From positions 23,780 through 87,779 of IMG/VR virus record IMGVR_UViG_3300037424_002164: a stretch of 64,000 nt of DNA. One strand, written 5' to 3'. The position numbers and the translations under genes are program-made. A model generated the notes under the pieces. It had not been told where the DNA came from. It saw only the letters and a list, made by a program, of their open reading frames with translations, and did not search any database. Source of the DNA: a virus (taxonomy: Duplodnaviria > Caudoviricetes). Positions within the stretch are counted from its first letter, which is position 1. The number at the start of each line of letters is the position of its first letter. Positions 5,203-35,500 of this stretch are shown in pieces.

Positions 5203-5799
5203 TCAGGCTGTTTTGAGGTCGTTTGTTGACTCAAGCAACCGTTCGACGGTACCGCGGCCCACGCCAAGTTGCGCGGCGATCGCGCGCTGCGAGAAGCCCG
5301 CGCGGTGCAGCTTCCGCGCGCGCTTCTGATCGAGCGACACGTTCGGCCGTCCGATCCGCACGCCCTTGTGCTGCGCGGCCGCCATCCCCGCCTTGACGCG
5401 CTCGCGGATCATTTCGCGCTCGAACTCCGCCACCGCGGCCAGGATGTGCAGCAGCAGCCGGCTGGTCGGGTTCGTCTGGTCGGTGTCGAGCGATTGCGAC
5501 GTTGCAATGAACCGGATGCCCCAGGAGTTGAGCTGTCCGAGCTGCTCGGAGAGATTGAGCACCGAGCGCCCAAAGCGGTCCAGCTTCCAGACGCACACGG
5601 CATCGAAGCGGTGTTCCGCCGCGTCTTGCATCACGTGATCGAGTTCTGGACGGCTGGCCTTCGCCCCGCTCCATCCGGTATCGACGTACTCGCCGGCGAT
5701 CGTCCAGCCTCTCCGGCCGCAGTACTCGCGCAGCTCGCGGAGCTGCATTTCACAGTGCTGGTCGATCGTGGATACCCGGGCGTAGATGGCGCAGCGCAC
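5203..5799 (-). CDS. Small serine recombinase (resolvase/invertase family) with C-terminal HTH
   Basis: IYARVST catalytic Ser, DTGWSG..ASRPEL, VWKLDRFGRS, AEFEREMIRERVKAG..AA...G..IGRP. Confidence 0.95.
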   Translation of the reverse strand: MRCAIYARVSTIDQHCEMQLRELREYCGRRGWTIAGEYVDTGWSGAKASRPELDHVMQDAAEHRFDAVCVWKLDRFGRSVLNLSEQLGQLNSWGIRFIATSQSLDTDQTNPTSRLLLHILAAVAEFEREMIRERVKAGMAAAQHKGVRIGRPNVSLDQKRARKLHRAGFSQRAIAAQLGVGRGTVERLLESTNDLKTA

Positions 5800-10925: not shown

Positions 10926-10954
10926 ATGATAACCTGCGCAAGTTAGCATGTCAA
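10926..10954 (-). promoter_or_regulatory. Sigma70 promoter (PL-like) with palindromic operator in the spacer
   Basis: TTGACA-17 nt-TATCAT on the minus strand; TAACCTGCGCAAGTTA near-palindrome overlapping the spacer. Confidence 0.8.
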
Positions 10955-11009: not shown

Positions 11010-11207
11010 ATGCCTAGCAGAAAAACATCACGTGCGGCGGCGGAGATGGCGAAGGCCCGGGCCGCCAGCATGTCTCCAGAACGACGCCGCGAAATCGCTG
11101 GCATCGCGGGCCGCTCCCGGATGACGAGGCTGACCAAGGCGCGCCGGATCGAGATTGCGAAGAAGGCGGCGGCGGCGCGGTGGGGCGTCAAGAAGACCGC
11201 GGGCTGA
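11010..11207 (+). CDS. Small basic putative DNA-binding protein (ARA..MSPERR.EIA..AA.ARW type)
   Basis: Internally duplicated motif; directly downstream of the promoter. Confidence 0.75.
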   Translation: MPSRKTSRAAAEMAKARAASMSPERRREIAGIAGRSRMTRLTKARRIEIAKKAAAARWGVKKTAG

Positions 11208-11214
11208 GGGCATC

Positions 11215-11802
11215 GTGAGACTCTGGCATCCCAACCGCCTGCAATGGGTCGTCATCTGGGCGACGTTTCTCACTGCGAGCCACCTCTCGCTGGATCTTAA
11301 GTTGTCTGATTGGTTGCCGGAATCCGGTCGGTCTTGGGGATTGTTCGCCTATTTAGATCGAGCAGACCGGACACCTAAAGGCCGCAACCATCTAAGCGTG
11401 GTAATTCTGGCGACGGGCGGCTTGATTTTGTGGCACTTTTCGGGGAGGAAGCGGCCGAAAGAGGTAGGGGCGGGATCAGCCGGAGGTTGTGCGAGTCTCC
11501 GAAAGCGCTGCGAGCTACTGTTGCAAGCAAACAAAGCTCTGGATGCGCTCCGGGATTCCGAGGAGGGTACGGCGGACACGGAAGAAATCCAACGGCTTCA
11601 GAATATCCTCGACAGCTTGACACTGCAGGCGATGAAGGAGCAGCCGCCCCCAGAGAGTGAAGCCAAAACTGGCGGGTTGTTCGGCCTCATCGTGTTGATA
11701 GGGATTTTTATGTTGCTTTGGATGGTTACGGACACACCCGAGAGGCGAACAAGCCATCCCGTCTTCGGCGCTCCCGCCTTCCGGCCCGCTCGGGGGTTTT
11801 GA
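11215..11802 (+). CDS. Three-TM membrane protein ending in FGAPAFRPARGF
   Basis: GTG start with GAGGG SD; three hydrophobic segments. Confidence 0.65.
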   Translation: MRLWHPNRLQWVVIWATFLTASHLSLDLKLSDWLPESGRSWGLFAYLDRADRTPKGRNHLSVVILATGGLILWHFSGRKRPKEVGAGSAGGCASLRKRCELLLQANKALDALRDSEEGTADTEEIQRLQNILDSLTLQAMKEQPPPESEAKTGGLFGLIVLIGIFMLLWMVTDTPERRTSHPVFGAPAFRPARGF

Positions 11803-11857
11803 CCCGTGGACCAGCGGAGGAAGCAGGGCCAAGGGGAAGAAGGATCAAAGGGCATAA

Positions 11858-12423
11858 TGGACGCGAAACTCAAAGCGAAACTCACAGAGGCTATCGAGAA
11901 GGCCTACGAACGCAGAGACAAACTCCAAATGCGGTACAGTTTGCGTACCAAAAAGGGCGCACAAAACGTACCGTTTTCTGTACAGAAACTGTACCATTTG
12001 CTTCACGTCGAGGCCCGGCGCAACATGGTGCGCGCCCGACTCTGGCGGAAGATCGAAACGGCGCTCGCCCAGGATAGCGTCGAACGCCTGATCGGCGAAT
12101 TCATCCGCAAGCACCAGCGCTCCGCCGAAGACGAGGCGCAGCTCCGCCTTCCCGGATTTGAATATTTGCCGGCGCGCATCCGCGCTGGAAGGCAGTCGCT
12201 GATATTCGCCAGAGCCACGGTAGCCCAGTTCCTGGCGTACAAGGCGCGTTACGAGCAGCGGGCCGAAAAAGATCAGCGGGTGATGGATGAGTTGCGGCGG
12301 CTGGCTGAGAGCGTGGGCCGATTCGCCGACGGGCATCCCGGCCTTACGATTGCCGAGGCATTGGAGCGGGCTCAAGGAACCGGCGGCGCGATCCGCCTTG
12401 TGGTTGCGGGGGCTGACCGCTGA
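11858..12423 (+). CDS. Hypothetical protein
   Basis: ATG start; protein-like helical sequence. Confidence 0.65.
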
Positions 12424-12456
12424 ACAGGATGGTCCCAGTCGTAAGGAAAGGAAGCC

Positions 12457-13500
12457 ATGAATCGTTCGACGTTCTCAAGTATCGGAATCCCAGTCCTTTT
12501 GCTGTTCGTGTTCGTATCCGCTTTCCCAACCCAGGCCCAGACCTGCATCGGCGAGGTGAAGCCTCTCAAACCCATCAATTGCCAGAATGCGGCGCCGGCC
12601 TGCCTGTGCGACGAGCTGGGCCTGAACTGCCGCTGGATCTGGTCTTGCACTCCACGGGGTTACGACTCCACCACTTCACGGGCGGAGGAGCCGTCACGGC
12701 CAGCCGGAGGCATCGATGCTCGCATCCCGCTGATGGTGCAGCCGCCGCAGGCTGGCAACAGCGGCCTGGACATCCTTCTTCAATACGCGGTCGCTGAACG
12801 CCTTAGCGAACCGCGGACTCCGCCACCTCCTGTGCATCCGACAACAGGCGCAGAATGGAGGGCCGTACTGGCCGCAAAGTCCGTGTACCTGGTCAATGCC
12901 AGCCATGACGGTGGACTCTTTGAAGGTCTCTATGGGCGGCTCCAGAAATGGGGACGGTGGGGCGTGGTCCAGGACGAACGCGACGCCGACCTCATCCTGG
13001 CACTGTCGGATGGCTACGAGTTCAACAAGCCGCGCTATCTGGCGGTTCTGCACCCGAGGACCAGGGCCCGGCTGTTTTTCGTCTCATGCGAGCGCCGAGT
13101 CACGGCGGGTTACACCGCCGGCGTGCTGGTCAACCGGCTGCGCAAGCGAATCGAGGCAATTAATAAACGCCCCATCGTTCCGGTGGCCGACAAGGATCTG
13201 GCGGCAGTCGGGACGAACGCTGCCCCTCCGGTTCCTGAGCGTTGGGCTTCAATGGTCGCGGTCGCGCGGGAGCGTTACGGGGATTGGGATGCGGCAACCA
13301 AGAGTGCCGAGACAGAGAGGCTGGCCATCACACCTGCCATGACGCAGGCCGTTTTCGGGTCGCAACTCGGCGCGGATTTGGTCTACTGGCTCGCGAAGCA
13401 CCCCGAGGAATGCCGGCGGATCGCGGCGTTGTCTCCAACTTCCGCCGCCATGGAGTTGGGCAGGATCGAGGAGCGACTTGCGGCAGTGGTAGGGAAGTAG
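12457..13500 (+). CDS. Secreted chimeric protein: signal peptide, 6-Cys domain, central domain, scaffold-like C-terminal domain
   Basis: AAGGAAAGG SD; MNRSTFSSIGIPVLLLFVFVSAFPTQA leader; TPAM/HPEEC/ELGRIE motifs shared with the scaffold. Confidence 0.8.
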   Translation: MNRSTFSSIGIPVLLLFVFVSAFPTQAQTCIGEVKPLKPINCQNAAPACLCDELGLNCRWIWSCTPRGYDSTTSRAEEPSRPAGGIDARIPLMVQPPQAGNSGLDILLQYAVAERLSEPRTPPPPVHPTTGAEWRAVLAAKSVYLVNASHDGGLFEGLYGRLQKWGRWGVVQDERDADLILALSDGYEFNKPRYLAVLHPRTRARLFFVSCERRVTAGYTAGVLVNRLRKRIEAINKRPIVPVADKDLAAVGTNAAPPVPERWASMVAVARERYGDWDAATKSAETERLAITPAMTQAVFGSQLGADLVYWLAKHPEECRRIAALSPTSAAMELGRIEERLAAVVGK

Positions 13501-13504
13501 AACC

Positions 13505-13729
13505 GTGGCCCATCTCGTCGAACTCATTTTCACCACGGAGATTGCTGGCAGCGGAGTCGAAGGGGATCCGATCCGCTGTCGCCCTCAACTTTGGACGAAG
13601 GACGGCCAGTTGGTCGCGGAGAGCGACCCGGCCACAGGCAAAGGGTTCTTTAACTGGACGGTGAACCTGGGGCCGCCGCCGCACATCCTCAGCCAGCCAC
13701 CGCCCGCGCCGCCACCCGATCATAAATAG
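13505..13729 (+). CDS. Small hypothetical protein
   Basis: GTG start 4 nt after the upstream stop. Confidence 0.5.
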   Translation: MAHLVELIFTTEIAGSGVEGDPIRCRPQLWTKDGQLVAESDPATGKGFFNWTVNLGPPPHILSQPPPAPPPDHK

Positions 13730-14296: not shown

Positions 14297-14325
14297 TTGC
14301 CTAGCAGCTTGGCATGTATGATACT
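14297..14325 (+). promoter_or_regulatory. Sigma70 promoter, probably leaderless
   Basis: TTGCCT-17 nt-GATACT, then 8 nt to ATG 14334. Confidence 0.55.
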
Positions 14326-14333
14326 GGGAAGCG

Positions 14334-14474
14334 ATGGCTAGGAAAAAGGTACTCGTGGACGTCAGGGAGAGCGGAAAGAAGGGCGGCTTGGCGCGGGCCC
14401 GGAACCTCACCCCTGAAGAGCGTAAGCTGTCCGCGCGCAAGGCTGCCCAGGCGCGCTGGGGGAAGAAACGGTGA
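14334..14474 (+). CDS. Small basic protein (GKKGGLARARNLTPEER...ARKAAQARW), paralog of 11010-11207
   Basis: 46-aa ORF read by hand; GTGA-coupled to the next gene. Confidence 0.75.
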   Translation: MARKKVLVDVRESGKKGGLARARNLTPEERKLSARKAAQARWGKKR

Positions 14475-18522: not shown

Positions 18523-19068
18523 ATGGAGATTTCGCGCAGGAACTTCGTAGCGGCAGTGATCTCTGCGGCAGCGGGCTATCACCTGCCCAAGGCCTTGGGT
18601 GCCTATCAGCCAGGCTGGAAGCCTCCCATCGGCGTGTGGCTCCCCCATGAGCTTCATGCCTTCATCCACGAAAGACTCGGCAGCATCGATCTTCGGATTG
18701 GAGGAGAGACCCGGTACTTTGCCACCGACATCGACACCTACAACCCTCTCACGAGGGCGGTGTCACCGGCGAGCCAGATCCTGATGGGCTGCTATGTTCG
18801 CTACCAGTCCCTGGCACATCTTCCGGCTGACATGAACCAAGCTGAGCACGCCGCCTGGAAAATGCTCGGAACGTTTTCGGTGATCGGCCCGGATGAACTC
18901 GGCCCAGGCAATGGACTCACTTGGTATTCGATGAAATTCTCCGAGGTAGCCTGCGAGTCCGACTCCGATGATGTCGAGGTCGTTTCTGGTGACCAGGTGG
19001 TAGTCTGCGAGTTCGACGATATCTATGTCTCTGGTGACCCGGTAGCGATGGAGCGATTCCGATCTTGA
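18523..19068 (+). CDS. Tat-leader protein, paralog A
   Basis: MEISRRNFVAAV leader (S-R-R-x-F consensus). Confidence 0.7.
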   Translation: MEISRRNFVAAVISAAAGYHLPKALGAYQPGWKPPIGVWLPHELHAFIHERLGSIDLRIGGETRYFATDIDTYNPLTRAVSPASQILMGCYVRYQSLAHLPADMNQAEHAAWKMLGTFSVIGPDELGPGNGLTWYSMKFSEVACESDSDDVEVVSGDQVVVCEFDDIYVSGDPVAMERFRS

Positions 19069-19075
19069 GGTGTTG

Positions 19076-19669
19076 ATGGAGATTTCGCGCAGGAACTTCG
19101 TAGCGGCGGTGATCGCCGGGATCGCGCTCCCCAGGCTGTCCAAAGCCCTGGGCGACTACGATCCGCACTGGCAGATGCCGATCGGTGTCTGGCTGAGACA
19201 CGAGCTCCACGTCTTCGTGCATCCGAAGCACGGCAGCATGGAGCTGCGGATTGACGGGCGCACCCGGTACTACGCCACGGACATCGACACCTCAAAGGAG
19301 GGCATGCGGCCGGCCAGCCACTTCCTGGTAGGGTGCGACGTTCGCTACGGTCAGCGGTACCGAGACTATTCCGGATACTGGAGCCCCGCAAGAATGGCCG
19401 CAAACCGGTTGTTCCTGACTTTCGGGGTGCTTCAGCCTAGGGATCTCGGACCGGGCGGCGGGATCGACTGGAAATTCATAATACCGGACCTTCCGGAAAA
19501 GAACCTCTGCTCCATGGAAAACATCTACGTGGCCGGCGATCAGCCGCATCGGAGGATGACTCTCTCCACGCTCGAGCGGGGCGCGTGGGCCTACATGACC
19601 TACGAATGCGCCCCACAGCCGATCGTGGACTTGAGCCAGTGGCGAATAGGCGGGTTGGACAGGGTCTAG
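19076..19669 (+). CDS. Tat-leader protein, paralog B
   Basis: Same leader; PIGVWL.HELH.F.H...GS..LRI.G.TRY.ATDIDT shared with A. Confidence 0.7.
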   Translation: MEISRRNFVAAVIAGIALPRLSKALGDYDPHWQMPIGVWLRHELHVFVHPKHGSMELRIDGRTRYYATDIDTSKEGMRPASHFLVGCDVRYGQRYRDYSGYWSPARMAANRLFLTFGVLQPRDLGPGGGIDWKFIIPDLPEKNLCSMENIYVAGDQPHRRMTLSTLERGAWAYMTYECAPQPIVDLSQWRIGGLDRV

Positions 19670-20028
19670 TCCAGCTCCAGGTAGCTGGTCACCCGCCACC
19701 CGTCGTAGTCCGGCCAGCGGCCCTGCGGATCGTGGAACTGCCCGTTCTCGTAGTAGACCCAGTGCCAGCGCCGGTTGCCGTTTTGCCTCATCACCAGCAG
19801 GGCGCGCCGGGGGTACTCCGGCCGGGCCCGTGAGATGGCATGGCAGCGGTCTACGGACCTGACACCCAGCCGGCGCAGAGCGGCGATGATCTCGCGGGTG
19901 CTGGTGCCCCCACGCCGGCCGTGCCCCACCGCCTCAATCGCCTTCGTGAGCGACACGCCGGCGGCCATGGCCACGCAACACTGGCCGCACAGGCTGCTGT
20001 CGATGGGCTGGCGCACGAGAACGGTCAC
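19666..20028 (-). CDS. Peptidase C39-like (papain-fold) protein
   Basis: Q...LCG.CC.AM, GTS, HWV, DP (Cys-His-Asp). Confidence 0.7.
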   Translation of the reverse strand: MTVLVRQPIDSSLCGQCCVAMAAGVSLTKAIEAVGHGRRGGTSTREIIAALRRLGVRSVDRCHAISRARPEYPRRALLVMRQNGNRRWHWVYYENGQFHDPQGRWPDYDGWRVTSYLELD

Positions 20029-20504
20029 GAGCTCTCCTGGATGTAGCCCGCCGGCGGGTTCTGGTTCAGCCAGATAGCGGTTTCGGCCTCCCTGCGGCCG
20101 TCGAGCACGTGCGGAACGCCGCCCGCCCAGTGCCAGCGCTTGATCTCGGAGGGAACCGCCGCCTTGTCTCCGGCGTTGAGCTTCCGGAGCAGGGTCGAGG
20201 CTCGCAGCGCGCTGGTTCCTACGTTATAGGCGAACGAGACCAGCGCATCGTACTCGTGCTGCTCGAGCGGGACAGCCACGATTCCGTTTACCACCTTGGC
20301 TACCGCCCGCACTTTGACACGCAGGCGGTGCGCCGCCTGTTGTTTCGTAAACACCCGATCGCGGTAGAACTCGATTTCCTCCGCGGTGAGCTGCGTTCCG
20401 TAGCCGATCGCCCGCTTCGAGGAGCCGGGCGGGTCCGGGTACATCCTGGCCCGGAAGCCCTCGGCGAGCTTCAGGAAGGAGATGATGTTCTCGGACGGAA
20501 TCAT
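20025..20504 (-). CDS. Endolysin, GH24 phage lysozyme family
   Basis: EG....Y.D, IGYG, DALVSFAYNVG, STLLRKLNAGD, W..AGG..L.GRREAE. Confidence 0.92.
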   Translation of the reverse strand: MIPSENIISFLKLAEGFRARMYPDPPGSSKRAIGYGTQLTAEEIEFYRDRVFTKQQAAHRLRVKVRAVAKVVNGIVAVPLEQHEYDALVSFAYNVGTSALRASTLLRKLNAGDKAAVPSEIKRWHWAGGVPHVLDGRREAETAIWLNQNPPAGYIQESS

Positions 20505-20546
20505 GGTTTTGGGGGACAAGCAAAGACGGTAAAGGACGGTACAAAC

Positions 20547-23500
20547 TCAGAAGCCGGCGGCTGGCTTGAAGGCTGGAGTGCCGAAGGTCTTACGTTTGGT
20601 CGTTCGTTGTCGCTCCAGGGCTTTGGCGCGCCTGTCCTGGTTGCTGGCTCTCGCGACTAAGCCCGGAGCGAACAGATCCAGGGATTGGCGGAGGTATTTG
20701 TTGCCCTGGGAGTACTTTTCCGCCGGGTCCAGGAAGCCGGTAGACTCGCCGAGGGTCTGGCCTACGTCGCCAAAGAAGCTGTTCAGCTCCATGCCGGCGG
20801 CGCGCATCCGCGCCCCCATCGTCGGCCATCCCGCGGGCGTATTGGGATCGACTGACGGGAAGAACTGCGGGTTCAGCCGGCCTGCTTGATCGCGGAAACT
20901 GGTCAGGTAGGTCTCTTTGAGGAAGACCCCGGTGAATACGGAGCGGGGCACCGGGCCGAGGCCCGGGTGGACGAGTGCGTTCAGGCTGTCGCGCTGGGCC
21001 GCCTCGAGTTGCTGCCCGAAATTCCCTCCCAACTGACGTGTTTCGAATGCCCCCGTAAGCCCCAGGGCGCGGGCGCCACGGCCGACCAAGGGGTTAAAGG
21101 CATTGAAGCTCAAATAGCCAGTTTCCGGTCCGTCGCCCCAGAGCGCCCGGCCGAGCTTGGAGTAGCGGTACTTATCGAGAGGGCCATTGCCCCCGCCCAC
21201 CGGAAGCTGAAATAGCTTGGCGCGCCTGTCTTCGGTGGGATATTTGCCCGTGAGCAGCTTCGAGGCGATGACCCAGAACGCGAGCAGCCCGAGCGCGCCC
21301 GCGGTTAACAGGTACATCAGGCGCAGCGCCCGCCAGCCTTTGGGCATCGGCCCCAATCCGGTCCAGGCGTTGACGCCGTTCGCCAGCGCAGTCGATCCGG
21401 CCGTGAAGAACGGAGCGATGCCCCACTCCTTCAAGGCGCGCTCGATCTCGCTCCACAACTCCGGCGTGTAGTTGCCGAGCTGGTTCACAAAGAGAGACCG
21501 CTCTCCGGCTTGGCTTTCCTCGGGGAAGAGCGCCTTGGCAATGTCCCACATCACGATACGCGCCCGCGCATCGAGTCCCTTCGGGCCGTAGAGCATCGGC
21601 CCCAGCGTGAGGGGGAAGTGTTTCAGCGTGGCTCCAGTGGCTTCGGCGTACTTGCGGCTGTAGGTCTGCGATCCATACTTGGAGGGCACTCCTCCGATAT
21701 CGGCCACTTCCAGCAGCTTTTCCAGATTTTCCGGCGTTGTGGGGTCGGTCTGGAGCAGCACCTTCCACACCACCGCCAAGGACTTGACCAGCGGCACGGA
21801 CACCGCTTTGTCGGCGAGGGTAGGACCCAGAAACGGCGTGTTCGAAACGAGCGCGCCCAGCACGTTGCGTGCGTGAAACACCATATCCAGGGGGCCGATC
21901 AGCGAGAGGGTGTTCAGGGTTCGGACGATTTTCCGCGACGGATCGGCCGAGTGAGGTTGGTGCTCGAGGATCGGCTTGAGTTCGCGATGCAGCCACGCCG
22001 GCAAGATGTCCATGCGGGTCTTCAGGGGAATGGTCTTCTTATCCTTGATAAGAGTTCGCGCTTCGGAAACCGGCACCTGAACGCCCGTGTACTCGACGCC
22101 ATTCCAGACGATGGTGTCCTGCCCTTGCTCAGCCGGCTGGAGCAGCCCTTCCTCTTCTAGCACCTTCAACAGGGCAGCCCGGTCGTTGGCGCGAATGGCG
22201 CGGCTCAGCCGTTCCTGGAAGGCTTCCATCCCGACGTCGTAGCCTTCCGCCAGGCCGGTCGCGAATTTGTTGGCGGCGTTTTTCGGCTTCTTGTAGGTCA
22301 CGCGCGAACCGAAAAACCCGGGATTGCGGTCGAACGGAATCAAGGGATAGTAGGTATCGAGCGGCCCCAGAGAGTCAGAAAACACACCTTCATTCAGGGC
22401 GTGGTTCTGCGCCATCGGCGCTTCGACCAGGCGCTTGTAGGCCCGCAAAGCGTCCTGCACTTGCGGATCTGAAGTCACCCTGTCGTACCAGCGCGGCTCC
22501 ATCACTTCGGCAACGTTCGCCGCGGCGTCGGAGAAGGTCTGCCCCAGAAACTCCCGCAGGGTGTCCCAGTCCGCTGCTTCATCCAGGGCCGCCGCGGTTT
22601 CAACTACATCCTGCGGGATCCCGCGCTTCCCCTGAATCGCGCTCAGCAGACCGGCAAACTCCTCTTTGAACACTTCCTGGAGCTGGGTGTCCTCCATTGT
22701 CGAGATTTGTTCGGCGAATCGTTCCCAGCGTTCCCGGATACCGCGGAGCCTCGACTCGATCAGCGCCAGGCGCAACTCGGGCCAGGTGAAATCGGAGCCT
22801 TTGAGCGCATCGAGGATTGTTGGAACAGCCGCGCGCAGGATGACCCTGGACTTGGCGTTGGATGAGGCGGTGCGGAGGGCTTCCCGGTGCACGCGGGCGC
22901 TGGCGCGACGGGTCTGGCCGAGATTGCGGCGATAACGGGTTTCCAGTGGTCCGAACACCCCGCGCAAGCCGCCGTAGTTTACTTCGGCGCTTTCCTCCCC
23001 GAATCTCTCGGACAGCCATTCGCCGATGGAAGCCAGGTCCATGTCCCCGGCTTCGCCGCGCCAGAAGGATTCAACCGGCCTCACCTTGCGCAGGCTCCAG
23101 TCGTTCGCCTCCAGATCCTCGGTGTCGTAGACCATGCTCCGGGCTGCCGTATCGACGTAGAGCGAGTCCGCACCCTTGGCGGCCCGCTCCACGGCCTGGC
23201 GGAGCCGGGAGGGATCGACCGCCTCGAGGCCCTGGATCTCGATCCCATTGCCGCGCGTGCGGATGTAGCCCGAGCGAAGGAGCTGGTCCTTATTCTTGCC
23301 GCGGAAACGGCTCAGATTCTGGTGCTCGGCCTCGGCGCCGAGGGGGATCACTTCGCCTTCCGGAGTGACCCAGAAGCCAGCGGTGCCGCGGCGGGGGGCT
23401 ACTGCTTGGGTGGCGGGGAGGTCGGCGGCTTGGCTTCCTCGGGCGGGAACACCTTGTCGAACTCCTCCGAGTAGTTCCCCCGGAGCTTCGCGCGCGCCAG

Positions 23501-26500
23501 GCGCATAGCCCGGCTGGTAGCCCTGGCGTCGAGCTTCGGCGGCTTTGGTTCGGGTTTCATCGAGGACTCCATTCAATTGTGACGCAATCCGCGGCAGCCG
23601 GGAGACAATTTCTCCCCCGTGCCGCTCGATCAGATAATCCAGATACCGGCTGAAGAGCTGCTTGGCCTCGTCGCGCGAAATGCCCATGCGGGCCCAGCCG
23701 CGCGGCCCTTGCGCCAGGTGCGCGCCGATCTCGGCGGCCATGGCATGCATCTCGTACTCGCTGGTGATCCGCGGGTAGCCCGTTTCGGTGAGTCCCCGAA
23801 GCGCCCGGCGGGCGAGCTGGTCTTGGAGGAATGACTCGGCGTCAATGTGTTCGACGCCAGCCTTCCCCTCGCCGCCTGCCTCCTGTGTCTGGAACCAGTG
23901 GAAGCGCTCGTGCTTGATGCGCTCCCGAAGCCTCTGCCAACTGTCTCCCGGGCGGTGGCCGACGATCAGCAGGGGCCGGAAGTCCGACACTCCCGCTTCC
24001 AGCTCCGCGGCGATCGCTTCAATCTTCGCGCGCGCCTCGGGCGAGACGTTCGGTGCGACTTGGCGCAGCGTGTCCACCATCCGCAGGACGCTCGTGGTGG
24101 TGAAGTGCATCCCGGCCCAGGTTTGCTGGTGTTTGGGAAGCACCGCTTTGAGCAGGTTGAGCGCGTTCTGGTCGGCCCACAGGAAGCGGGGCTCGGTTTG
24201 ATCGTGCAGGAATAGCTTCGGATCGGCGGCCGCCAGCTTTTCGAATTGCGGATAGTAGGTGGGCGGGTGCTCCGGGAGGGAGTCTTCCTCCAGGGAGGCG
24301 AGATCGCCCTGGGGTGGATTCTCCGCCGGGGGATTTTGGGTCGCGTCCACCTTCGCTCTTAGCCGTTCGAGCGATTCCTCTGGGGTCTCGTCCGGCGCCT
24401 CGAATTTCTCCTGGAACCGCTCGAATTTCTCCTTGAATCCCTTGGGCATCACGGCCCAGTTCCAGTCGAGTGAAGCCTCAGCCTGGCGCGCGAACGCAAC
24501 CGCGTGGTAGTCCTGGTGGAAAAAGTTTCCCATCCGCTTGCCGCTGGGAAGGTGGATGACCTCGTACGACTTACCCTTGGTCACTTCCCTGACCCCAAGG
24601 TACTTGCCGACGACGCGCACCTGGACCGGGTACTTGCCGTAGTCGCTCGCTGCAAAGATCCGCCGGGACGGGAACCAGTCCGCATGCATCGAGGTGGTTG
24701 GATCCAGGCGCATCGGCCGCAGGGGATCCCGCCGGTTCGCCTCTTGTTCCTCGTCCGCGCCGAGCGCTTGCCGGTCATTCGCTTCCGCGCCGAGCTGGTC
24801 GGATAGTTCCTGCTGCCGGCGGAGCATCGTGCGGAGCTTCTCTTCACCCTTGAACGGCTGGCCAAGCCTGCTTTCGAGCTCCACCTGCTGTTTCTCGAGT
24901 CGGCGCAGTTGATCCTTACCGTGTTGCAGGCTCTCTTCGAAGCCGCGCAGATGGTTGTCGGCCGATGCGATGGTGCCGGCGGGGTTGGCGTCATAGTTGA
25001 CGCTGACCCGGTAGGTGCCGGAAGCCGCCCGCAAACGAAGTTGCGGCGCACTGAAGTACTTGAGCTCAAAGCGGCTCTCCATCTTGTCCCATTCCACATG
25101 GACCTGAGTCGCCCGGGAAAGGTCCAATTCCTTCAGACCAAAGGCATCTCGTTTATGGATGTCGTGCCAGTTTTGTTGGAATCCTTGTGCCGTTACCTGG
25201 TAGTACAGCCACTTGTTGTCCGGCGTCATCTCGCGAGCGAAAAGGAGGTTGGCGCCGACACTCTGGTCGGTCTTGGAATGCCTGACCCCAAGTTCGGCGA
25301 AATGTGGCGTGGCCTCGAGCGGAATGCCGTGGTACGTCGTTTCGATTGACTGCGGTTCGGTGATGACTCCGACCTTTTTCAGGCGCTCGATGAGGATCGG
25401 GGCGCCCTCGGCCCGAATTTCCTTCTCCTCGTAGCGCTTCCCGTCGATGACCAGCGCACTGTCGGAGTTCCGCGCGGCAATGTCGGTGGTGAAATTCTCG
25501 ACCCGCTGTCTCGCTGCTTTGGTCTCCTCCGGCAGGGTTGCGAGGGTTTGGGAGATCGTGGCCTGTTCGGTCAGCCAGGTTCCGCGCATGATCTCCGCCT
25601 TCAACACTTCCTGGTCGAGGATGATCTTCTCCCGCACCAGCGGGTTGCCGGAGGATACGGCCTTCGCCTGCTCGTAGCTCATCACCGCGGGCGAAAGCTC
25701 CTCGATCCGGCGTACTGCCGGATCTCCGTTCATGAACTGCTGGATCGGTTTGGCCTTCGCCGAAACCGTCTCCCACATGAAGGCGTCGAACGTTCCTTCC
25801 GTCATGTAGCGGTAGATGCGGACCGGGATCTTGTGCTCGTCCCAGAGTTTGTTGCCCTGGCGTTTGATCCGTCCGTCGCGCTGCTCGATGTCGCGCGGGC
25901 GCCACGGAGCGTCCAGATGGTGGTTGGCGATCAGCCGTTCCTGCACGTTCATGCCCGCGCCCATCTTTTCGGTCGATCCGATCAAAACGCGCACGTCTCC
26001 GCGATTCACCCGCTCGTAAAGCAGGAGCTTCTGTATGTCGGTCTTGGCGTCATGGATGAAGGCAACCTGTTCCGGCTTGAAGCCTCGCGCGATCAGCTTC
26101 TGCCTGATCTGGCCGTAGACCGTGAATATCTCCCGCTGCTCGTCGGTGGTCACGACTTCTTCGGTGACTTCCTCCTCCTTTTCGTCGTAGAGCGTCTCCT
26201 CTTGGTCCGCGACGTTGGCCACTTCCTCTGCGGCTGCCGGTTTCGCTCGGGTGACTTTCTCCGACTTCGGGGTGGAGAGATCCAGGAAGACGAGTTGCGC
26301 GGCGCGATACTGGCCGAATTCCTTGTTGATGGCGACGATGTTGTCGATCGCTTTCGCGACTTTGCTGACCGGCTCCTCTTCGGCCAGCGGATCGACCAGC
26401 CGCATATCGAGCGAGGCCTTGCGCCCGTCGCTCGAGAGTTTCAGCATGTTGTCGATCGAGGGGTCCTTGATAACGCCGTTGCGGATGTCGTCGGCACGCT

Positions 26501-29500
26501 TGCCAATCTCCAACACGTAGGCCTTCTGCGCCGCCGATGCCGGCGCGACGACGTCGATCGGGCCGCCCTGGTAGACGGCGGGGGTGGGCAGGTTGAGCTT
26601 TTCCGCGGTCTGGATATCGGCCGCCAGCCGGAACATATTCATCAGCTCCGGAGCGTTGTGAAACTCCGCGAACCGGCTGCGCGAAATGAAGCGGCCGCCT
26701 TCAGGGGCTACCTCCATCTGGGTGCGGACTTTTCCGAACGTCTTCGCCCAGGCGTCGAACTGGTCCAGGCCCTCGCGCTCGAGATACTGGGGAATGAGGT
26801 ACCGCATCATCGTCCAGATTTCGGCGATGCTGTTCGACACCGGGGTGCCGGTGGCAAACACCAGGCCGCGATCGCCGCCGTGCAACTGGGAGACGTACCG
26901 GGTTTTGAGAAGCATGTCGGTGGCGCGATCGGCGTCGGAGTTCGGCAAGCCGGCCACGCGGTCCATCATGGTCAGGTAGCCCAGGTTCTTGAAGAGATCC
27001 GCTTCGTCCACGAAGAGCCAGTCCACGCCCAGCTCCTCAAAGGTCACCCCGGTATCCTTCTTTTCCCGCTTCGTTCGTTTCTCGATCTTCGCCTCGAGTT
27101 GCTTCTTGCGCCGGACGAGCTGCTTCACCGTGGGGTCTCGGCCCGCTTCGCCCTTCTGCTTGCCCTTGCTGAAGGTTTCAATGGCCGCCTCGAGTTCCGC
27201 GACCTGCGCATCCATGAATTCCTTGAATGTCTCGTCCTTCACCGCGAGTAGCTGGAAGTGCGTGTGCCCGACGATCACGGCATCATAGTTTCCGGTGGCG
27301 ATCCGGCTCATGAGCTTCCGGCGGTTCTGCTTGTCAAAGTCCTTTTTCGTCGGCACCAGAATCTGGGCGCCCGGGTAGGCCAGCAGGAAGGCGTCTTTCC
27401 ATTGCCCAACCAGGTGATTTGGCACTGTAATCATCGGCTTGCGGGCGAGACCCAGGCGGCGCAGCTCCATGGCCGCCATGGTGATTTCGAGCGTCTTGCC
27501 GGAGCCAACCACGTGAGCGTAAAGCGTGTTGCCGCTTTGTATCGTTCGCCATACGGCTGTCTTCTGGTGGGGATCGGGGTCCTGATTGCGCAGCCAGGTC
27601 CGGTTCAGCCCTGGAAACGTCTGGTGGGAACCATCGAACTCGCGCAGTTTGAGATTGTTGCGTTCTTCGTTGTACTTGCCTTTCAGCCGGTTCGCTCGTT
27701 TGGAATCGGACCAGAGCCATTTGCTGAACTGATCGACAAGCGCCCGTTGCTTTTCCACTGCCTCGATGGTGGCCTCGGCATTTTTCACCATCACTGTTGT
27801 CGGGTAGCCGCCGGCGGTATACCCCACCTCCTCATCGCGGGCCACGGGCATCTTCCCGTTGATGGCGAACTCCAGCAACTCCATGCCGGAGAAATACGCG
27901 GTGCCGTAGTCCACGCTGTTGGCGACGCCTTTGTCGCTGAAGGTGTATTGCGGGCGGATCGCGAAGCTGCCGGTGAGCGGGACGTACTTCACCAGATCGG
28001 TGGCGCGCGCCTCGGACTCCTCGACCCGGAGCACTTCCCGCAGGAAGTCGGAGTAATCGGTGTCCGGGATCCATGTCGCCCCGAGCGGCGCATCGATGTC
28101 GCCGATGTCGAGGTCCCGCGGCTGGATTGCTTTCAGTGCTTCGACGTTGGGCAGGAATTGGGGGTCCTCTCCGGCGGCAAACTCAGCGTCCCGCAGTTTC
28201 TTGCGCACGTTGCCGGAGAGGTATTCGTCCCTGGTTTCCCAGCTCTTCGTGATGGGGTTCCGGTAGATTTTGCCGCCCAGTTCCTGGCGCAGCTCCTCCG
28301 GCGTGCGGCCGGTCAACTCCTGCATCCGGCTCCAGTCGAGCCGCCCGAGATCGTTGAGCGAGACCGCCAGCGCCTCGGCGCCGGTTTCGACGCTGGTGAT
28401 GCGCGGCGGTTTCTGAATCGTCCGCTCGCGGAACATCGCCCGCTTGGTGGCGGTCTTGGTGTCTTTGTTGTAGTCCTCGAGTGCGGTGAGCAGCGGCCAG
28501 TCCGGATCCTCCCCAAAGACCAGGGAATTGCCGTTGCCATTCACCGGGCCGTGCCGTTTGACGAAGTGGTCGTAAACTCGGTTCAGGGCTTTGCGGGCGG
28601 CGAGGATCTCTTTCTCTTCGAATTCGTGGCGCTGGGTTCGGATGACCTCCCGCGCGGCTCCGCGCAACTCGATCAAGGCTTTGGCGCGATCGAGCTTCTT
28701 TCCCTTGAGAGGCAGTGGCCGGAAATAGGCGCCCTCCCGCCGGACCAGCGCGCCGTCGACGTAGGCGATCTGGCCGTCCTTCATGAACTGCGCGTCGGGG
28801 TAGTTTTCAACCAGGTTGTCGCGCGCGCCGGAAGGCTGCTGCTCCCAGGACGGGATAACGCCCTCGGGCAGGCGGGCGAGCATCTTGTCCAGCTTGTCGA
28901 GCGAGAATTCGCCAAACAGCTCGGGGTAGCCGCGGCGATACTGCGTGCCGGCGCCCATCTTGCCCATCATCATTTCAGGGTGCCGGTGGAAGTACTCGTT
29001 GACGTCCACCTTGAACCCGTCGTCCGTGTCCAGAGTCCGTGACTCGACCCACTTCTCGTCGGAAACGGGGACGCCTTCGGGAATCCGCCGGCGTAACGCG
29101 ATGATGTCAACCGTCACCGAGGTACCGGCGTTGGCCAGGAAGGTGTCGCGCGGCAGCCGGATCGCTCCCAGCAGCTCGGCCCGCTCGTTCACCCAGCGGC
29201 GGAAGGCCGGAGCTTTGGAATCCATCGTGTAGCGGGACGTGATGACGAGCATCACTCCGCCCGGGCGCAACTTCTCGACCGATTTGGCGATGAAGTAGTT
29301 GTGGATGTTCTCCGTCAGGTACGGAGTGCGCCGGAACGCCGCATCGTTGACTCCGACGTTGCCAAAGGGCACATTGCCGATCACCAGGTCGAAGTAGCCG
29401 TCCGGCAGGTTCGTTTCCTGGTAGGGCTTGATGACGATGTTCGAGCCAGGGTAAAGCGCCCGCGCCATGGCGCCGGTGAGAAGATCCATCTCGACGCCGG

Positions 29501-32500
29501 TCCGCCCGGTGCCGGGCGTCAGATCCTCCGGCATCATCATGAAGAAATTGCCGCTGCCCATCCCGGGCTCGAGCAGGGAGCCGCCCGCGCGGAATCCGAG
29601 GCGGCGCGCGGCATCCCACATGGTTCGGGCCAAGTCCCGGCGGGTGTAGTGAGCGTTGATGGTGGATTCCCTAGCGGCCTCGAATTCCTCCGGCGTCAAC
29701 AGGCCCTCAAGCTCCTCGCGGATCCCGGCCCACTCGCGCTTGTAGCCGAAAATGCCGTTGGCCAGCTCCGAGTCGCCCCAGCCGACGTACTTGGCGATCG
29801 CCTGCTGCTCTTCGATGGTGGGGGCGCGGTTCTCCGCCTGAACCTGCTTGACGATACGAATGGCCGCGAGGTTGTTCTGGGCTTTGGTGCGGGCGCCGCC
29901 CCGTTCAGCCTGGGCGGCCTGTTCAGGGGTTAGGCGGAAGTCTCCATCGATAGACCGAGGTTCGACGGCGTCAACTCGAGGTTGGGCTGCTCCTCTTCCT
30001 CCGGGAGGCGATACCACTGGTGGTCGGCCAGTTCGACTACCTTCTCCCAGCTCAGGCCCTGCTGCGTCAGGCTGACCCGTAGCTCCACGGTCAGAAACGC
30101 CGCCACGAGCACCAGGCGGTAGAGCACTTTCGCCTTCTCCATCTCCGCGCACATCTTCGGGCGGAACTCCTGCCAGTGTTTCAGGACCGCCTGGGCGAAG
30201 GGCGTCTCCTCCACCTCTTTGTGGGCGGCCGGCTCCGGCAGTTTCCGTGCCTGTTCGAGGGTGAGTTCGGCGGTCTCCGGCATCGGGTTGCTCCGCCTCC
30301 ATTATGCTCTTTTTTTCGGACTCGGGAGCCGTGATTTGATCGGGTTCAGCGGCTTCGGGTACCAAGGGTTCTACCGCTGCTTCAGGGGACGGAAGCCCTG
30401 CTTCCTTCCCCTCGACCCCTTCCTTCCTTTCGGACAGCGGCTTGGCCGTGTACTCCTCGTCGTCCCAGAAGTAGTTGGGGGCCTGGTTTTCGAGGCGGGA
30501 TTCGGCGGCATCGGCCGCCATCCAGCGGGACATCAGTGAATCGCCCGCGTGGTCGGCTTCTTCCTTGGTCGCGAAGAACTGGCCGTTGGGCGTCCACTCG
30601 TTCTTGACCTTGACGTAGACGCGGTAGCTTTTCGCGGGCGCCTTTACCGACTGTTCGGGGCCGCCCGTGTCCTTCCGGAGATCCCGGGCATCAAACGGCA
30701 CGTATTCGATGGTCTGTGTGGCTACATCAGGTGCACCTTCACCAGCGGGATGCGCGCGGACACGGTACTCGGTCTCGCTCACCGACGTGATGTAGCCGTA
30801 CTTCTCCTGGCCGCTCGCGTGTGTCCAACGGATGGTGTCTCCCTGGGAGAATCGGCGGGGGCCGGGCTCTGGGCGAGGGGTAGCCGGTGCCTCGGGTGCT
30901 TTCTTTTCCTGCGCTGCCTTCAGCGCCTGGGTGCCGGCAGGGTTGCGAGCGAAGGATATATTTCCCCCTTCCTCTGGCCCGCGGCGAATCAAACCCAAAC
31001 GCAGCAGTTGGGCGAGTCCGTTATTGAAGGCATCCCGCGTGAGGTTTTCAATATCGGAGGCAACCGATTCTTCAAGGCTGCCGCTTTGAGTGACGCGGTT
31101 GGTTTCGAGGTTTCTGATGATGGAACGCTCGATAACACTAAGCTGAGCGGCTTCAGGGGCACTTGGCGTCTCTGTCGTGGGCTGCCCATGGGGTGTCGCA
31201 ACGATCTTCCGGCTGATCCGCTGCACATCAGGGAGCTTGTCGGCGTCGATGATCCACGCCTTCTGTTCTCCGTTCCACCTTCCTCCCAGCTTCTTGATCT
31301 GATTCCGGTGGACGTAGGTGTCGCCGGTGAGGGCGTACTGCCCTGCCTCGGGTGTTTCTTTCCTTGTTGACTCGCCCGCCGGGAGCGCTTCGGGGGCCGG
31401 TTGACCGCTCGCCATCCGGGGTTCCGTCTCCGTCTTGGCGGACGTACCCGGGCGTGCCGGGGGTTGAGCGGGTTTTTCTCCCTGTCCTGCCGCCTCCTGC
31501 TTCGGGGCTTCAGTCTTCGCCTTCTCCTCGACCTTCTCAACCCTGCTCACGTGGACCGGACGGAACATCCCGAACCTCTGATCCGGCTCCTCACCGATGA
31601 ATACAGTAAAGCCCTCAACGCGACTGACGTAACCTTCCCGAGTCTTTCCTTCCTTGTCGGTCCAGCGGACGTGGTCATTCTTCTGGAACCGCAACTCCGG
31701 AGACTTCAATTCCTGAACGACACCGCCGCCCGGAAGTTTGTGGGTGACAACCGGGTCTGGAGCGGGCGCAGGCTTGGCAGGCTCAGCCGGTGAGCCCTTC
31801 AACTCGATCTCCGTCTGCTTCCCGCTCTTGTCGGAGAACACGATGCGGTCGAGCGTGATCTCCTGGCCGGTGATCCCGGGGATTTCCTTGCCGGTGTACT
31901 GCTTGCCTTTGCCGTCTCTCAGGTAGGCGATGGTCGCGTGCGGCTTATAGCCCGGGTGCGTCTCGGTGTTCGGCAGCGCGTCTGCGATCTTCTCGTTGAG
32001 CCGCGCCAGGTCCGGAGACTCGACGTCCACCTTGAGTACGTCGCCGTTGTCGGTGCCGGCGAAGATCGAGGTTTTACCGAGCTTCAGTTTAACCGGCGGC
32101 TCATTGGCGATCAGTTTGCGAACGGCTTCCGGCTCGCCGCCGTGCAGGCCGTACTTGATGGTGATGTGCGGCTGGGTCTCGCGACCCTTCGCGGCTGATT
32201 CCCCACCGTACTTGGCGCCCGCTTCAGATGCCAGGTGCTCATCCGGGATGGTTTCGCCAAACGCAAGGATCCTTGCGGCAATCGGCCCTTGCAGGTTGAC
32301 TTGCGTGGACGCATAGTCGAACTGTTCCTTTTCCTCCGGCTTCACGCCCCTCATCCGGTCGGTTTCGCCCTCGATCCAGTTGCTCGCGTCGTCGTACAGC
32401 TTCTGGGCGTGGGGTACGATCCAGTCTCCGAACTCCTCGGAGAGTGCCGTGGTGAACCGGCCCATGCGGTGGTGGCCGGCGAGAATCTTGTGGGCCGCAA

Positions 32501-35500
32501 CCGTCTTCAGGTCCGGCCATAGTTCCTTGAGATCCTCGGGGATCCCCGTGTCGGCCGGCTCCTCGATCGAGGCCAGGTCGCCCTCGGTCCCACGGCGCCG
32601 CTTCAGCGCTTCTTTGATGCGCGCGCTCGCGGCCGCGGCGTCTTTTTCGAGGCGCGTGCGCAACTGCTCGGAGATTTCCTGGTCGGAGAGCTTGACGGCG
32701 GGTTTTTCTGGTTCTGTCCGGGGCTTCCCGGCGGGCGCAGGTTTTCCTAGTTGACTAGGAATTTCCTGTTTGGCTGCTGCTGGCGGGGACGCAACCGCTG
32801 GTTCGCCGCTTGCGGCTCCGAAAGCAGACTTCCCCGCGGCCCCTTCTTCCTTTGCCGCAAACCCCACCCGCTCCACCGTCAGCTTGCCCGGCTCGGCGTC
32901 CCTGGCTTGCTCCTTGATCGCTCCGCGCACCCGCTCGCCATAGGCCCGGACTTCGGCTTCCTCGAGCCCGGTTGCCTTGGCCACAAACGCCACGTAGTCG
33001 GCGTCCCGCTTCGAAGGGGTCTTTTGTGCGGTGATGTAGGCGGCCCGGTCGACGTCGCTGGCGAATTCGATCTCGAAGGACTTGTTGCCGTAGTTGTAGC
33101 GCGGCATCGCGCCGGAGAGATGGCGGGGCAGCTTGCGCTCAGGCTCCTGGGCTACGGGGGTGACTTCGTCCGGATCGAGTGTGACGACGCCGGCGGCCGC
33201 GGGCGGGGCGGCTCTCTGTCGGTAGTCTTCGACCCATTTGGAGAATTCGCGTTTGTCGTCCATGCTGGGGATGCCCAGCTTGTTGCGGACTACCCGGACC
33301 AGTCGGGCTCGGTCCATTCCCTCGAATCCGGCGTCTCCTACGTTTTTGAGCTTGTCTCCAAGCCGTTCGGCAACCTGTTTTGCCGTCAGTTCACTGGCGC
33401 TCAGCCGTTCTACTTCGTCAACAATGCCAAGCCGTTGGGCCAGTTCAAAATCCCGGTCAATCGCCTCTTGGAGCCACGTCTTCTCGCCAGTCTGGATCGG
33501 CACCGGCTTCCCCGCCGCCTCAGCCAGCTTCTTGCGCCCGCCTTCGACCCGCGCCCGGAATTCCTGGAGCATCGCCTTGTCGCGCCCCGCTTCGACCCCC
33601 TCGGTTGCCGTCTCTGGCTCGGCAGCGGAAGGTTTGGCAGGCGGCGCGAATGGTTCATCCTTCCAGTACGTGGGAGCTGTCACCAGCTCGATACGCTCTG
33701 CGCCTGCGGCTTGCGCCTCCTGAAGTGTCCGGTAGTACGGACTCCACTCGCCCTTGATCTCGCCCTGGTATACCTTCCCTTCCGGAGCGACAGCCGGAGT
33801 CGTGGAGGAAACAGGGGGTGCGGGGGGAGAAACCAGGGGTTTCGCCCCTTGCGGCTGCGGCTTCCCTTGCGCGTCGAGTACCCCCTCCTGTTTCATCCTC
33901 CGGACAAGCGCCGCCCCCTGGTGCCGGGGAATCTTTAACTCCGTCCACAGCGCCTTGTCGGTGACGGGCCCGGTGGCCGCCCGGGCAAACTCAACGGCTT
34001 TCTGGTACGACTGCTCGGCTGCTTCCGTTTCCGGGCTGACCTGGGATGGGGTGGCAGGAGGCTCCGCAACCTGTTGAGGCGGCGTGACCGGCTTTTGGGG
34101 CGGCTGGGTAACGGCTGGTTGCCCGGTATCACCTGATACCGGAGGCGCCAGGAATTGCTGTTCGAAGTCGGCCAGACCCAGAGTGCCCCGGATCTTGTTG
34201 CCGGCTTTCATCTCCTTCTCGAAGAAGACCCGGCCCTTTTTGACCTCGAGCACGCGGGTGACCCCCGAGGGGGTCTCGAAGGTTGCGCCTTTGGTGATTT
34301 CGGGGGCGACGGCTTCTGATTCCGCCTGGGCCGGCCGCTCGGCCTGTGGAAGCTGGGTCCCTTCGCGTCCGAGTTTCGCCCGCTGCTTCTGGATGTCCGA
34401 GATCCGGGAGTCGGCCTCTTTCATGACCGCTTCGGCGTAGATGTCCCGGGTTCCTTCGTTGCGCGCCTGATCGGCGATGGATTGGGCCTCAGCGCGGTCC
34501 GCTACGGCTTGCGAGTAGTCCAGGTCCAGCCGCGTCGCGGTTTCTTCCGGCGTTCCTGCTCCGCCGCGCTGTTCAATGCGCGTGCGAATCGTCTCGGCGC
34601 TCCCGGCCGCAAGCCGTTTGCCGGTGGCCTCGTCGATGAGTACCCATTGCGGCCGGCCCCGGCCCTGCGCTCCAGCCGGTGTCGTCGCGCCCTCAAAGTG
34701 GATGCGGACTGCTGTGCCGTTCAGATCGAGCTTGATGTCCTCGCCGAAGATCTTGCCCCAATCCTCGGTGGCGATCTTCTGAGCTTGCTCGCTCCAGGCT
34801 TGCGCCGCCAGACGCTGGCCGCTCTTCGTAAGCGCGGCCGTTTCCTCGACGGCGGTTTTCAGGCGCACCTGGCGGGGCGCGCCGCGCGCGGGGATCTCTC
34901 CGACCGGATATGCCTCTGCCGCGGTACGCCCCGCCTTTACCGCTCCCGCGGCGGCGAGCGCCGCTATGGCCGCGCTGCCGAGCGCTGCCGCTCCGTGTTC
35001 CGTGGCGGCAATGTAGTCTCCCCGCTTCGCGGCTTTCCAGGCCGCGTCTCCCTCCAGAATCGTCCCATTGCCGGCGAGCACGGCGAACCCGGCCGGGACC
35101 GCCGCCATGGTGGCGACGTCAGCCGCCTTCATGACGACCGGGGAGCCTTTCAGCAACTTCACGGCGACGGGAAGGTTGACGACTCCGCGCAGGAGATTGG
35201 TCGCGCCCGCGCCCAGCGCCACCATACCGGCGCTTTCCATGCTGGTCAGAGGTTCGACGGCACCCGTCAGGCCGCGCTCTGCTGCGATGAGTCCTTCGAG
35301 CGGATTCCCCTGCGCCTCCTCGGCCGTGGGCAGCAGCAGCGACGGCCGCACGATCGGTTCTCCCATCGGCCGCGCGTACTTGTTGGTGATGTTGGTCTCG
35401 ACGAAGTGTTTGCCGAATCGTTTCAGCCCTTCCGGGATGGTGTATTCCGGGCGAATCGAAACCTCAACTCCCGGCACCCCCGGCGTTCCAGTCCGCTCCG

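Follow-up and report, generated by a model that had tools for sequence, protein, structure and literature searches.

The accessory operon

The window analysed here is a stretch of 64,000 nucleotides of phage DNA (bases 23780-87779 of one contig). An operon at 11010-13729 encodes a 65-aa basic protein, a membrane protein, proteins of 205 and 347 aa and a 74-codon ORF. The first gene (11010-11207, + strand) specifies the basic protein, which is rich in Arg and Ala, ends in an ARW motif and has weak relatives. The gene that follows at 11215-11802 (+) encodes the membrane protein, which has 195 aa and three predicted helices; an independent gene call gave the same product (P0073). The longest ORF of this gene begins with TTG at 11155; GTG at 11215, 8 nt past the upstream stop, is the likely start. 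The gene for the 205-aa protein (11806-12423, +) starts 4 nt past the stop of the membrane gene, and the gene for the 347-aa protein lies at 12457-13500 (+). Just upstream of the operon, a divergent control region holds a strong, leftward sigma-70-like promoter (10926-10954, - strand; 11/12 match). None of the four operon proteins was matched in PADLOC, NCBIfam or Pfam. The 65-aa, membrane and 205-aa proteins had no match in PHROGs either, and the ESM Atlas gave no usable match.

Small Arg/Ala-rich proteins ending in ..AA.ARW.KK are encoded twice in this phage, at 11010-11207 (+) and at about 14322-14474 (+). They are also found in related phages and, on bacterial contigs, beside genes of the membrane family described below. 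The relatives (L006, L008, L016, L018, L020) are weak, with phmmer E-values of 0.004-0.16.

A Sec-type signal peptide can be read from the sequence of the 347-aa protein, whose PHROG matches are to the scaffold families phrog_8865 and phrog_648. Residues 258-345 are 42% identical to the scaffold of the phage itself (BLASTP, E = 4e-20). The head scaffold gene is split by the contig ends, with its C-terminal part at 63409-63999 (-) and its N-terminal part at genome positions 1-609. Judged by this similarity, it is beyond doubt that the scaffold-domain copy in the operon represents re-use of a virion part. The N-terminal part of the 347-aa protein is Cys-rich, and a scaffold domain has no obvious role outside the cytoplasm. 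A single scaffold gene is found in the related phage G001 (IMGVR_UViG_3300031812_000001), as opposed to scaffold plus paralogue here. A second resemblance to a virion protein had been proposed, between IDARIPLMVQPPQ and the N-terminus of the 471-aa protein of the ejection module. The match is real (8/13), and the N-terminal peptide of the 471-aa protein is conserved in G001 as well, but its significance did not hold up: at 28.8 bits it ranked 5 in a systematic scan of protein termini, within the noise. We have consequently dropped this peptide copy in the secreted neighbour as support.

No counterpart of the operon proteins was found in G001, the only relative examined in full (66,473 bases; CheckV completeness estimate 79%). 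The core of the membrane protein was found neither in G001 nor in the other 14 related loci, which are partial and were examined over at most about 10 kb on the downstream side of the giant ejection gene. We therefore regard the operon as accessory.

A membrane anchor with an orphan C-terminal half

An AF2 model of the membrane protein, built from 28 relatives (mean pLDDT 73), has helices at residues 8-25, 43-52, 54-76, 92-115, 122-141 and 154-172. Three of these (8-25, 54-76 and 154-172) are long and hydrophobic; a Kyte-Doolittle analysis at a threshold of 1.6 picks up only the third. Residues 173-195 are modelled as coil, and the pLDDT of the tail is 54-65. The sequence-only reading had proposed three transmembrane (TM) helices, an N-in topology and a periplasmic tail. 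The AF2 model agrees with the three helices. The N-in orientation finds support in homologues with long N-terminal extensions, one of which carries a zinc ribbon (P0049), since such extensions would place the N-terminus in the cytoplasm. From this and the number of helices we infer that the tail after helix 3 probably faces the periplasm. This placement is reasonable, with the qualification that, by the positive-inside rule, the four Arg residues of the tail speak mildly against it.

A phmmer comparison with 1.8 billion representative proteins retrieved 30 relatives, every one matching residues 1-90 only. Over this two-TM core the protein is 37-57% identical to a family of homologues (P0030-P0059; alignment A1) with seven invariant residues (Q10, W11, H23, G42, Y46, L47 and W73). 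The C-terminal half, comprising the coiled-coil hairpin, the third helix and the tail, had no homologues in the same scan and sets the phage protein apart from this family. Word-indexed searches gave 0 matches with the single sequence and only 4 with alignment A1, and no member of the family was found in IMG/VR with alignments A2 and A3. All other members that could be placed come from metagenome or MAG contigs that are non-viral and of Acidobacteria type. As far as we can tell from reading ORF translations, one member presumably adjoins SbcCD-like genes and another an IS-type transposase gene, and a third resides in what we take to be a recombinase/ParB/secretion-ATPase island of an Acidobacteria MAG.

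Towards their C-termini the family members are mutually unrelated, with parts that include extra TM helices and beta-rich domains; N-terminal extensions are of zinc-ribbon or coiled-coil type. By its sequences, this looks like an unannotated, polymorphic family in which a two-TM anchor carries variable heads. The C-terminal extensions of P0032, P0034 and P0046 have a motif in common, F.(V/I)(S/T)PE(E/D)(F/I)L, which suggests that other linear motifs may be displayed on the same anchor. In a distant three-TM subfamily on bacterial-looking contigs, proteins end in aromatic and Gly residues (..SFGSFRGNAFNSPFGKF, ..NAFTAPPGKW and ..SSYGRW). The likeness of these endings to the tail described below hints at a possible cellular reader of such tails, the similarity being of low complexity and gapped. 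The closest homologues of the core, P0030-P0032, are without any such tail.

The phage and its giant ejection-type protein

The virion genes are those expected of a short-tailed phage of P22 type. Portal, TerL and scaffold genes are present on the same strand. A gp10-like protein is recognised by phrog_578 (E = 2e-111), and the podophage sequences that it matches in tblastn are annotated as packaged DNA stabilization protein. A gp7-like DNA ejection or DNA transfer protein is encoded at 40341-41435 (-; phrog_598, E = 8e-33), with tblastn matches annotated as ejection, injection or transfer proteins. The gp20 position is taken by the gene for the 471-aa ejection-module protein (37299-38714, -), which had no PHROG match and no match in the phage collection. 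It is located directly upstream of a giant gene at 20547-37202 (-) encoding a 5,551-aa virion protein of ejection type, and its orthologue in G001 likewise directly precedes the giant gene. The order gp7-like, 471-aa and giant is thus kept in G001. We accordingly class the genome, from its gene content, as that of a P22-like podophage with gp7/gp20/gp16-type ejection genes. Because the scaffold gene spans the ends of the contig, the 87,779-bp record is probably complete and circularly permuted or circular. Two cases of internal paralogy were observed in the virion module, between 58477-59664 (-) and 59961-60626 (-) (34% identity, E = 4e-34) and between 44155-45828 (-) and 48100-49728 (-) (33% over 115 aa, E = 2e-9).

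The giant protein begins with an SLT domain (E = 9.9e-21) and contains a 2H phosphoesterase (2_5_RNA_ligase2, E = 1.1e-9), an Eco57I-type N6-methylase (E = 2.6e-5) and a Helicase_C match that is weak and below the Pfam cut-off (E = 6e-4). Its SLT head and the position of its gene assign it to the place of gp16 in P22 and T7. It combines an N-terminal lytic transglycosylase, a position at the end of the ejection module and several enzyme domains of anti-defence type. It resembles the ejection proteins of P22 gp16 and T7 gp16 type and the polyvalent proteins of phages and conjugative elements (Iyer et al., J Bacteriol 2017, PMC5512222) in its SLT head, its gene order and its string of 2H, methylase and helicase modules. 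It differs from these in its length of 5,551 aa and in a C-terminal GF tail that is rare, being present in 2 of about 40 homologues. The C-terminal domain of about 500 aa is conserved across all giant homologues. A strong TM-like helix, LMYLLTAGALGLLAFWVIASKLL, is found in this domain at residues 5292-5319, about 230 residues before the C-terminus. Such a helix would suit a protein that acts at the inner membrane, or inserts into it, once ejected.

Immediately downstream of the giant gene, a gene at 20025-20519 (-) appears by eye to encode a lysozyme of the GH24/T4 type (..EGFRARMYPDPPGSSKRAIGYG..). A putative late-operon endolysin thus follows the ejection genes here, compared with a sieA-type gene in P22.

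A common peptide at two C-termini

The membrane protein ends in FGAPAFRPARGF, encoded with its stop at 11764-11802 (+), and the giant protein ends in FGTPAFKPAAGF, encoded with its stop at 20547-20585 (-). In longer context, the + strand ORF 11155-11802 finishes in ...HPVFGAPAFRPARGF and the - strand ORF 20547-37202 (5,551 codons) in ...RKTFGTPAFKPAAGF, in both cases followed by the stop. As the sequence-only reading had noticed, the two peptides are identical in 9 of 12 positions at the extreme C-termini. Both abut TGA stops. The three mismatches are A/T, R/K and R/A, the first two of which are conservative. In six frames of the full 87,779-bp genome, the pattern FG.PAF.PA.GF occurs exactly at these two places, each time directly before a stop.

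It had further been claimed that five of the shared residues use different synonymous codons and that conservation is at the level of protein rather than due to recent copying of DNA. Both claims stand. The coding DNA differs in 11 of 36 bases, mostly clustered at synonymous sites, and five of the changes are silent ones at the third codon position of identical residues (P, P, A, G and F). When 11 base changes were placed at random, at least 9 residues were kept in 0.2-0.4% of simulations, which argues that, if one DNA copy was ancestral, it is the peptide and not the DNA that has been preserved. No long exact DNA seeds are found between the two tail-coding stretches. Any copying of DNA must therefore be old, and the peptide has nonetheless been retained.

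The distribution of the tail among homologues was analysed with the C-terminal domain of the giant protein, for which we collected 25 homologues from the protein collection and 15 loci from IMG/VR (two-sequence alignment A4). The domain was matched neither in the GenBank phage collection nor in the 401 Acidobacteriota genomes searched. Nearly all homologues finish in ...PGLV.NASNP.KRA....QQR and a few basic residues, and the giant protein of this phage runs about 13 residues further. Among the approximately 40 homologues, a comparable extension was found only in the G001 lineage (P0010 cluster). In an in-register MAFFT alignment, GRVPDFSKASGF of G001 and FGTPAFKPAAGF have P, F, A, G and F in common (P.F..A.GF, 5/12). 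The tail of the membrane protein is thus nearer to the giant tail of its own phage (9/12) than is the homologous tail of G001 (5/12). A maximum-likelihood tree of the domain, calculated with the tail columns left out, places the giant protein of this phage within a clade with 98/98 support that excludes G001, and 0 of 200 bootstrap trees unite the two. The well-supported branches force two changes. Because its carriers are not sisters, the tail is an add-on of patchy distribution that does not belong to the domain, and such patchiness is typical of what may be a short functional module.

Absence of the motif from homologues of either protein had been named in advance as grounds for rejecting the sequence-only reading. 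This is partly what we found: the GF tail is missing from about 38 of 40 giant homologues and is degenerate in G001. Together with the orphan C-terminal half of the membrane protein, this shows that the tail is no family-wide targeting signal. From the sequences compared, it is instead a lineage-specific add-on of the giant protein, with its counterpart encoded by an accessory gene that was seen in this phage alone. The peptide is located in a stretch predicted to be disordered, its conservation shows in the amino acids and not in the DNA, and its gains or losses are independent of the domain beside it. On these properties the pair qualifies as a predicted short linear motif shared by two proteins.

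Chance, and searches for the motif elsewhere

The probability of such a match was addressed in several ways. With shuffled tails of 830 stop-to-stop frames (at least 60 aa), 9/12 was reached in 2 of 300 trials. With shuffled tails of a crude set of 100 genes, 9/12 was reached in 0 of 5,000 trials and 8/12 in 8. Real pairs of frames within each of 16 other loci (n = 358,868) gave a maximum of 8/12 and none with 9/12. When matches were weighted by residue rarity, the tail pair scored 35.9 bits, the runner-up among 702,903 pairs scored 29.1 bits, and it is the three matched Phe residues that lift the tail pair the 6.8 bits above the rest. When the termini of 24 virion-module proteins were run along the complete sequences of all other ORFs, the tail pair was again the top outlier. 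It thus stood out clearly in each of these comparisons. For real gene pairs within one genome we estimate a chance probability of about 1e-4 to 1e-3, a value that is convincing for a single genome but not negligible at the scale of the scan of about 250,000 windows from which the match was selected.

The motif was searched for outside this genome. A proposed search across phages, carried out as a strict scan of IMG/VR for FG.PAF.PA.GF as a DNA pattern, returned 0 matches. None of 401 sampled Acidobacteriota genomes has PAF.PA.GF followed by a stop as a C-terminus; the sole match to the pattern in these genomes reads TGG instead of a stop, which is the level expected by chance. Sharing of a tail between the giant protein and another protein was found neither in G001 nor in the 14 other loci, where the background maximum is 4-5/12.

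Several known C-terminal signals were considered and rejected. A PEP-CTERM or PGF-CTERM sorting signal had no NCBIfam match at E <= 0.1, and the order of elements differs: the membrane protein has a TM helix, a basic stretch and then the 12 residues, while in PEP-CTERM the motif is followed by the TM helix and a basic cluster. An OMP beta-signal, a DegS YxF ligand, sliding-clamp or SSB-tip motifs and a look-alike of the FtsZ C-terminal peptide (xPAF-R/K) were likewise set aside, since they fail on order or spacing or have no model match.

Comparison with superinfection exclusion proteins

SieA of phage P22 is an inner-membrane protein with three predicted TM helices that acts on the ejection-protein conduit and blocks injection; the mutations by which phages escape it affect gp16 and gp20 in their C-terminal regions (Leavitt et al., mBio 2024, PMC10883804). 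Its authors weigh direct binding to the conduit against occlusion of an inner-membrane partner in the host such as YajC (PMC10883804). The membrane protein described here is similar in size (195 aa, compared with 162-164 aa), in its putative architecture of three TM helices and in belonging to a P22-like podophage. There are also clear differences. The two proteins have no sequence homology (the best BLASTP E-value is 0.034, over a coil segment), and the present protein has no PHROG match. The order of helices is different, with a soluble helical hairpin between helices 2 and 3 in the present protein. SieA has no terminal peptide in common with gp16, gp20 or gp7. Finally, sieA directly follows gene 16 in P22, whereas the membrane gene here is 8.7 kb away in a separate operon.

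HK97 gp15 and TP-J34 Ltp are membrane protein or lipoprotein exclusion factors that block DNA entry via an injected conduit protein (PMC10883804). Compared by description, they are alike in being envelope proteins encoded by phages, exclusion being predicted only in the present case. They differ in originating from long-tailed phages and in having the tape measure as target, and no copy of a target peptide has been described for them.

A model for the tail peptide

The sequence-only reading had suggested that the peptide may be a docking or targeting signal or a mimic, and a docking signal or a mimic would fit the genomic context. Our preferred, though tentative, interpretation is that the 195-aa protein is a SieA-like superinfection exclusion protein that acts by mimicry of the giant tail; we would put it somewhat below an even chance. 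We favour it because architecture and type of phage are like those of SieA and because a displayed peptide resembles competitive occlusion. The tail of the giant protein would be a short linear docking motif that acts at the inner membrane during DNA injection, with a host component or another protein of the conduit as its partner. The membrane protein would display a copy of this peptide on its disordered, probably periplasmic tail. The anchored copy could then occupy the docking site, such that phages with the same type of tail fail to complete the DNA conduit. The secreted copy of the scaffold domain is a possible second decoy in the same cassette. The sequences establish the starting points of this model: the match and its conservation as a peptide, the tail as an add-on, the operon as accessory and the scaffold domain as a paralogue. 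The topology, possible binding and exclusion as such are the inferred part.

Several observations count against mimicry of the tail. No sharing of tails is seen in relatives, so there is no support from co-variation. The tail has four Arg residues. G001 has a GF-type tail and neither the membrane-protein family nor the operon. As to a temperate lifestyle, the ORFs tested include neither a tyrosine integrase nor a repressor of cI type. P22 SieA, moreover, has no peptide in common with gp16, gp20 and gp7 and is no homologue.

The idea may be extended to the operon as a whole. The tail copy and the scaffold-domain copy would mean that virion parts have been re-used in envelope proteins twice within one operon. 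One possibility, which we consider less likely than not, is that 11010-13729 is a decoy cassette that places interaction pieces of the virion in the envelope and confers type-specific superinfection exclusion by self-mimicry. Ejection proteins of incoming phages of the same type would be captured or docked wrongly, and DNA entry would fail. The two-TM core would then be a reusable anchor with interchangeable baits on mobile elements of Acidobacteriota.

How SieA-type proteins recognise divergent ejection proteins was left as an open question in the 2024 SieA paper (PMC10883804). If the mimicry model is correct, the answer would be competitive occupation of the docking site by the terminal peptide of the ejection protein itself, and the 12 residues would be where a giant injected protein makes a functional contact. 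Provided that copies of this kind can be recognised from sequence alone, specificities of exclusion would be predictable from metagenomes.

Alternative explanations

The same features of the motif, i.e. the synonymous pattern, the bit-score outlier and the patchy tree, would also be expected if the tail were a docking or targeting motif used by both proteins with no role in exclusion, by which they reach one partner for the benefit of the phage. The partner could be a host periplasmic reader of C-termini of the PDZ or protease type, a complex in the inner membrane or a protein of the phage. As for the membrane protein, it might prepare or mark a site of entry or exit, or it might detect the ejection proteins of superinfecting phages and hold back lysis. 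RI of phage T4, which acts in lysis inhibition, is a model for this kind of sensing and delay. The aromatic/Gly endings in the distant three-TM subfamily hint at such a reader in cells, but their likeness requires a gap and is of low complexity, the nearest relatives P0030-P0032 do not have it, and the 401 Acidobacteriota genomes sampled contain no C-terminus of the PAF.PA.GF-stop type. We consider shared docking of this kind unlikely, if still a serious contender.

The match may also have arisen by chance or by compositional convergence of two disordered C-termini rich in G, A, P and R in a genome of 63% GC. We keep this as a live alternative because the first-stage scan covered so many windows: only 12 residues are involved, some false positives are to be expected among about 250,000 windows at the per-genome probability estimated above, and relatives show no co-variation. 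Against convergence are the 6.8-bit outlier due to the three matched Phe and the location of both peptides exactly at the C-terminus. In addition, one partner is a lineage-specific add-on of an ejection protein, with a related add-on in a non-sister phage, and the same operon carries an unambiguous copy of a virion domain. On balance we find coincidence quite unlikely. That scaffold copy demonstrates copying into this operon, which makes it conceivable that the tail is a relic, an old intragenomic copy of the 3´ end of the giant gene onto the membrane gene that is without function now. We regard a relic as improbable, since neutral drift with 11 of 36 bases changed only rarely keeps at least 9 residues in the simulations described above, and since the lack of long exact DNA seeds points to an old copy whose peptide has nonetheless been retained.

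Other genes in the window

A small serine recombinase is encoded at 5203-5799 (-), with a Resolvase N-terminal domain (E = 3e-43) and an HTH; it was the only recombinase seen among the ORFs tested. Two tandem paralogues at 18523-19068 (+) and 19070-19669 (+) are 46% identical (E = 1e-43) and both begin with a twin-arginine-like leader, MEISRRNFVAAVI... Exported proteins like this pair are unusual in phage.
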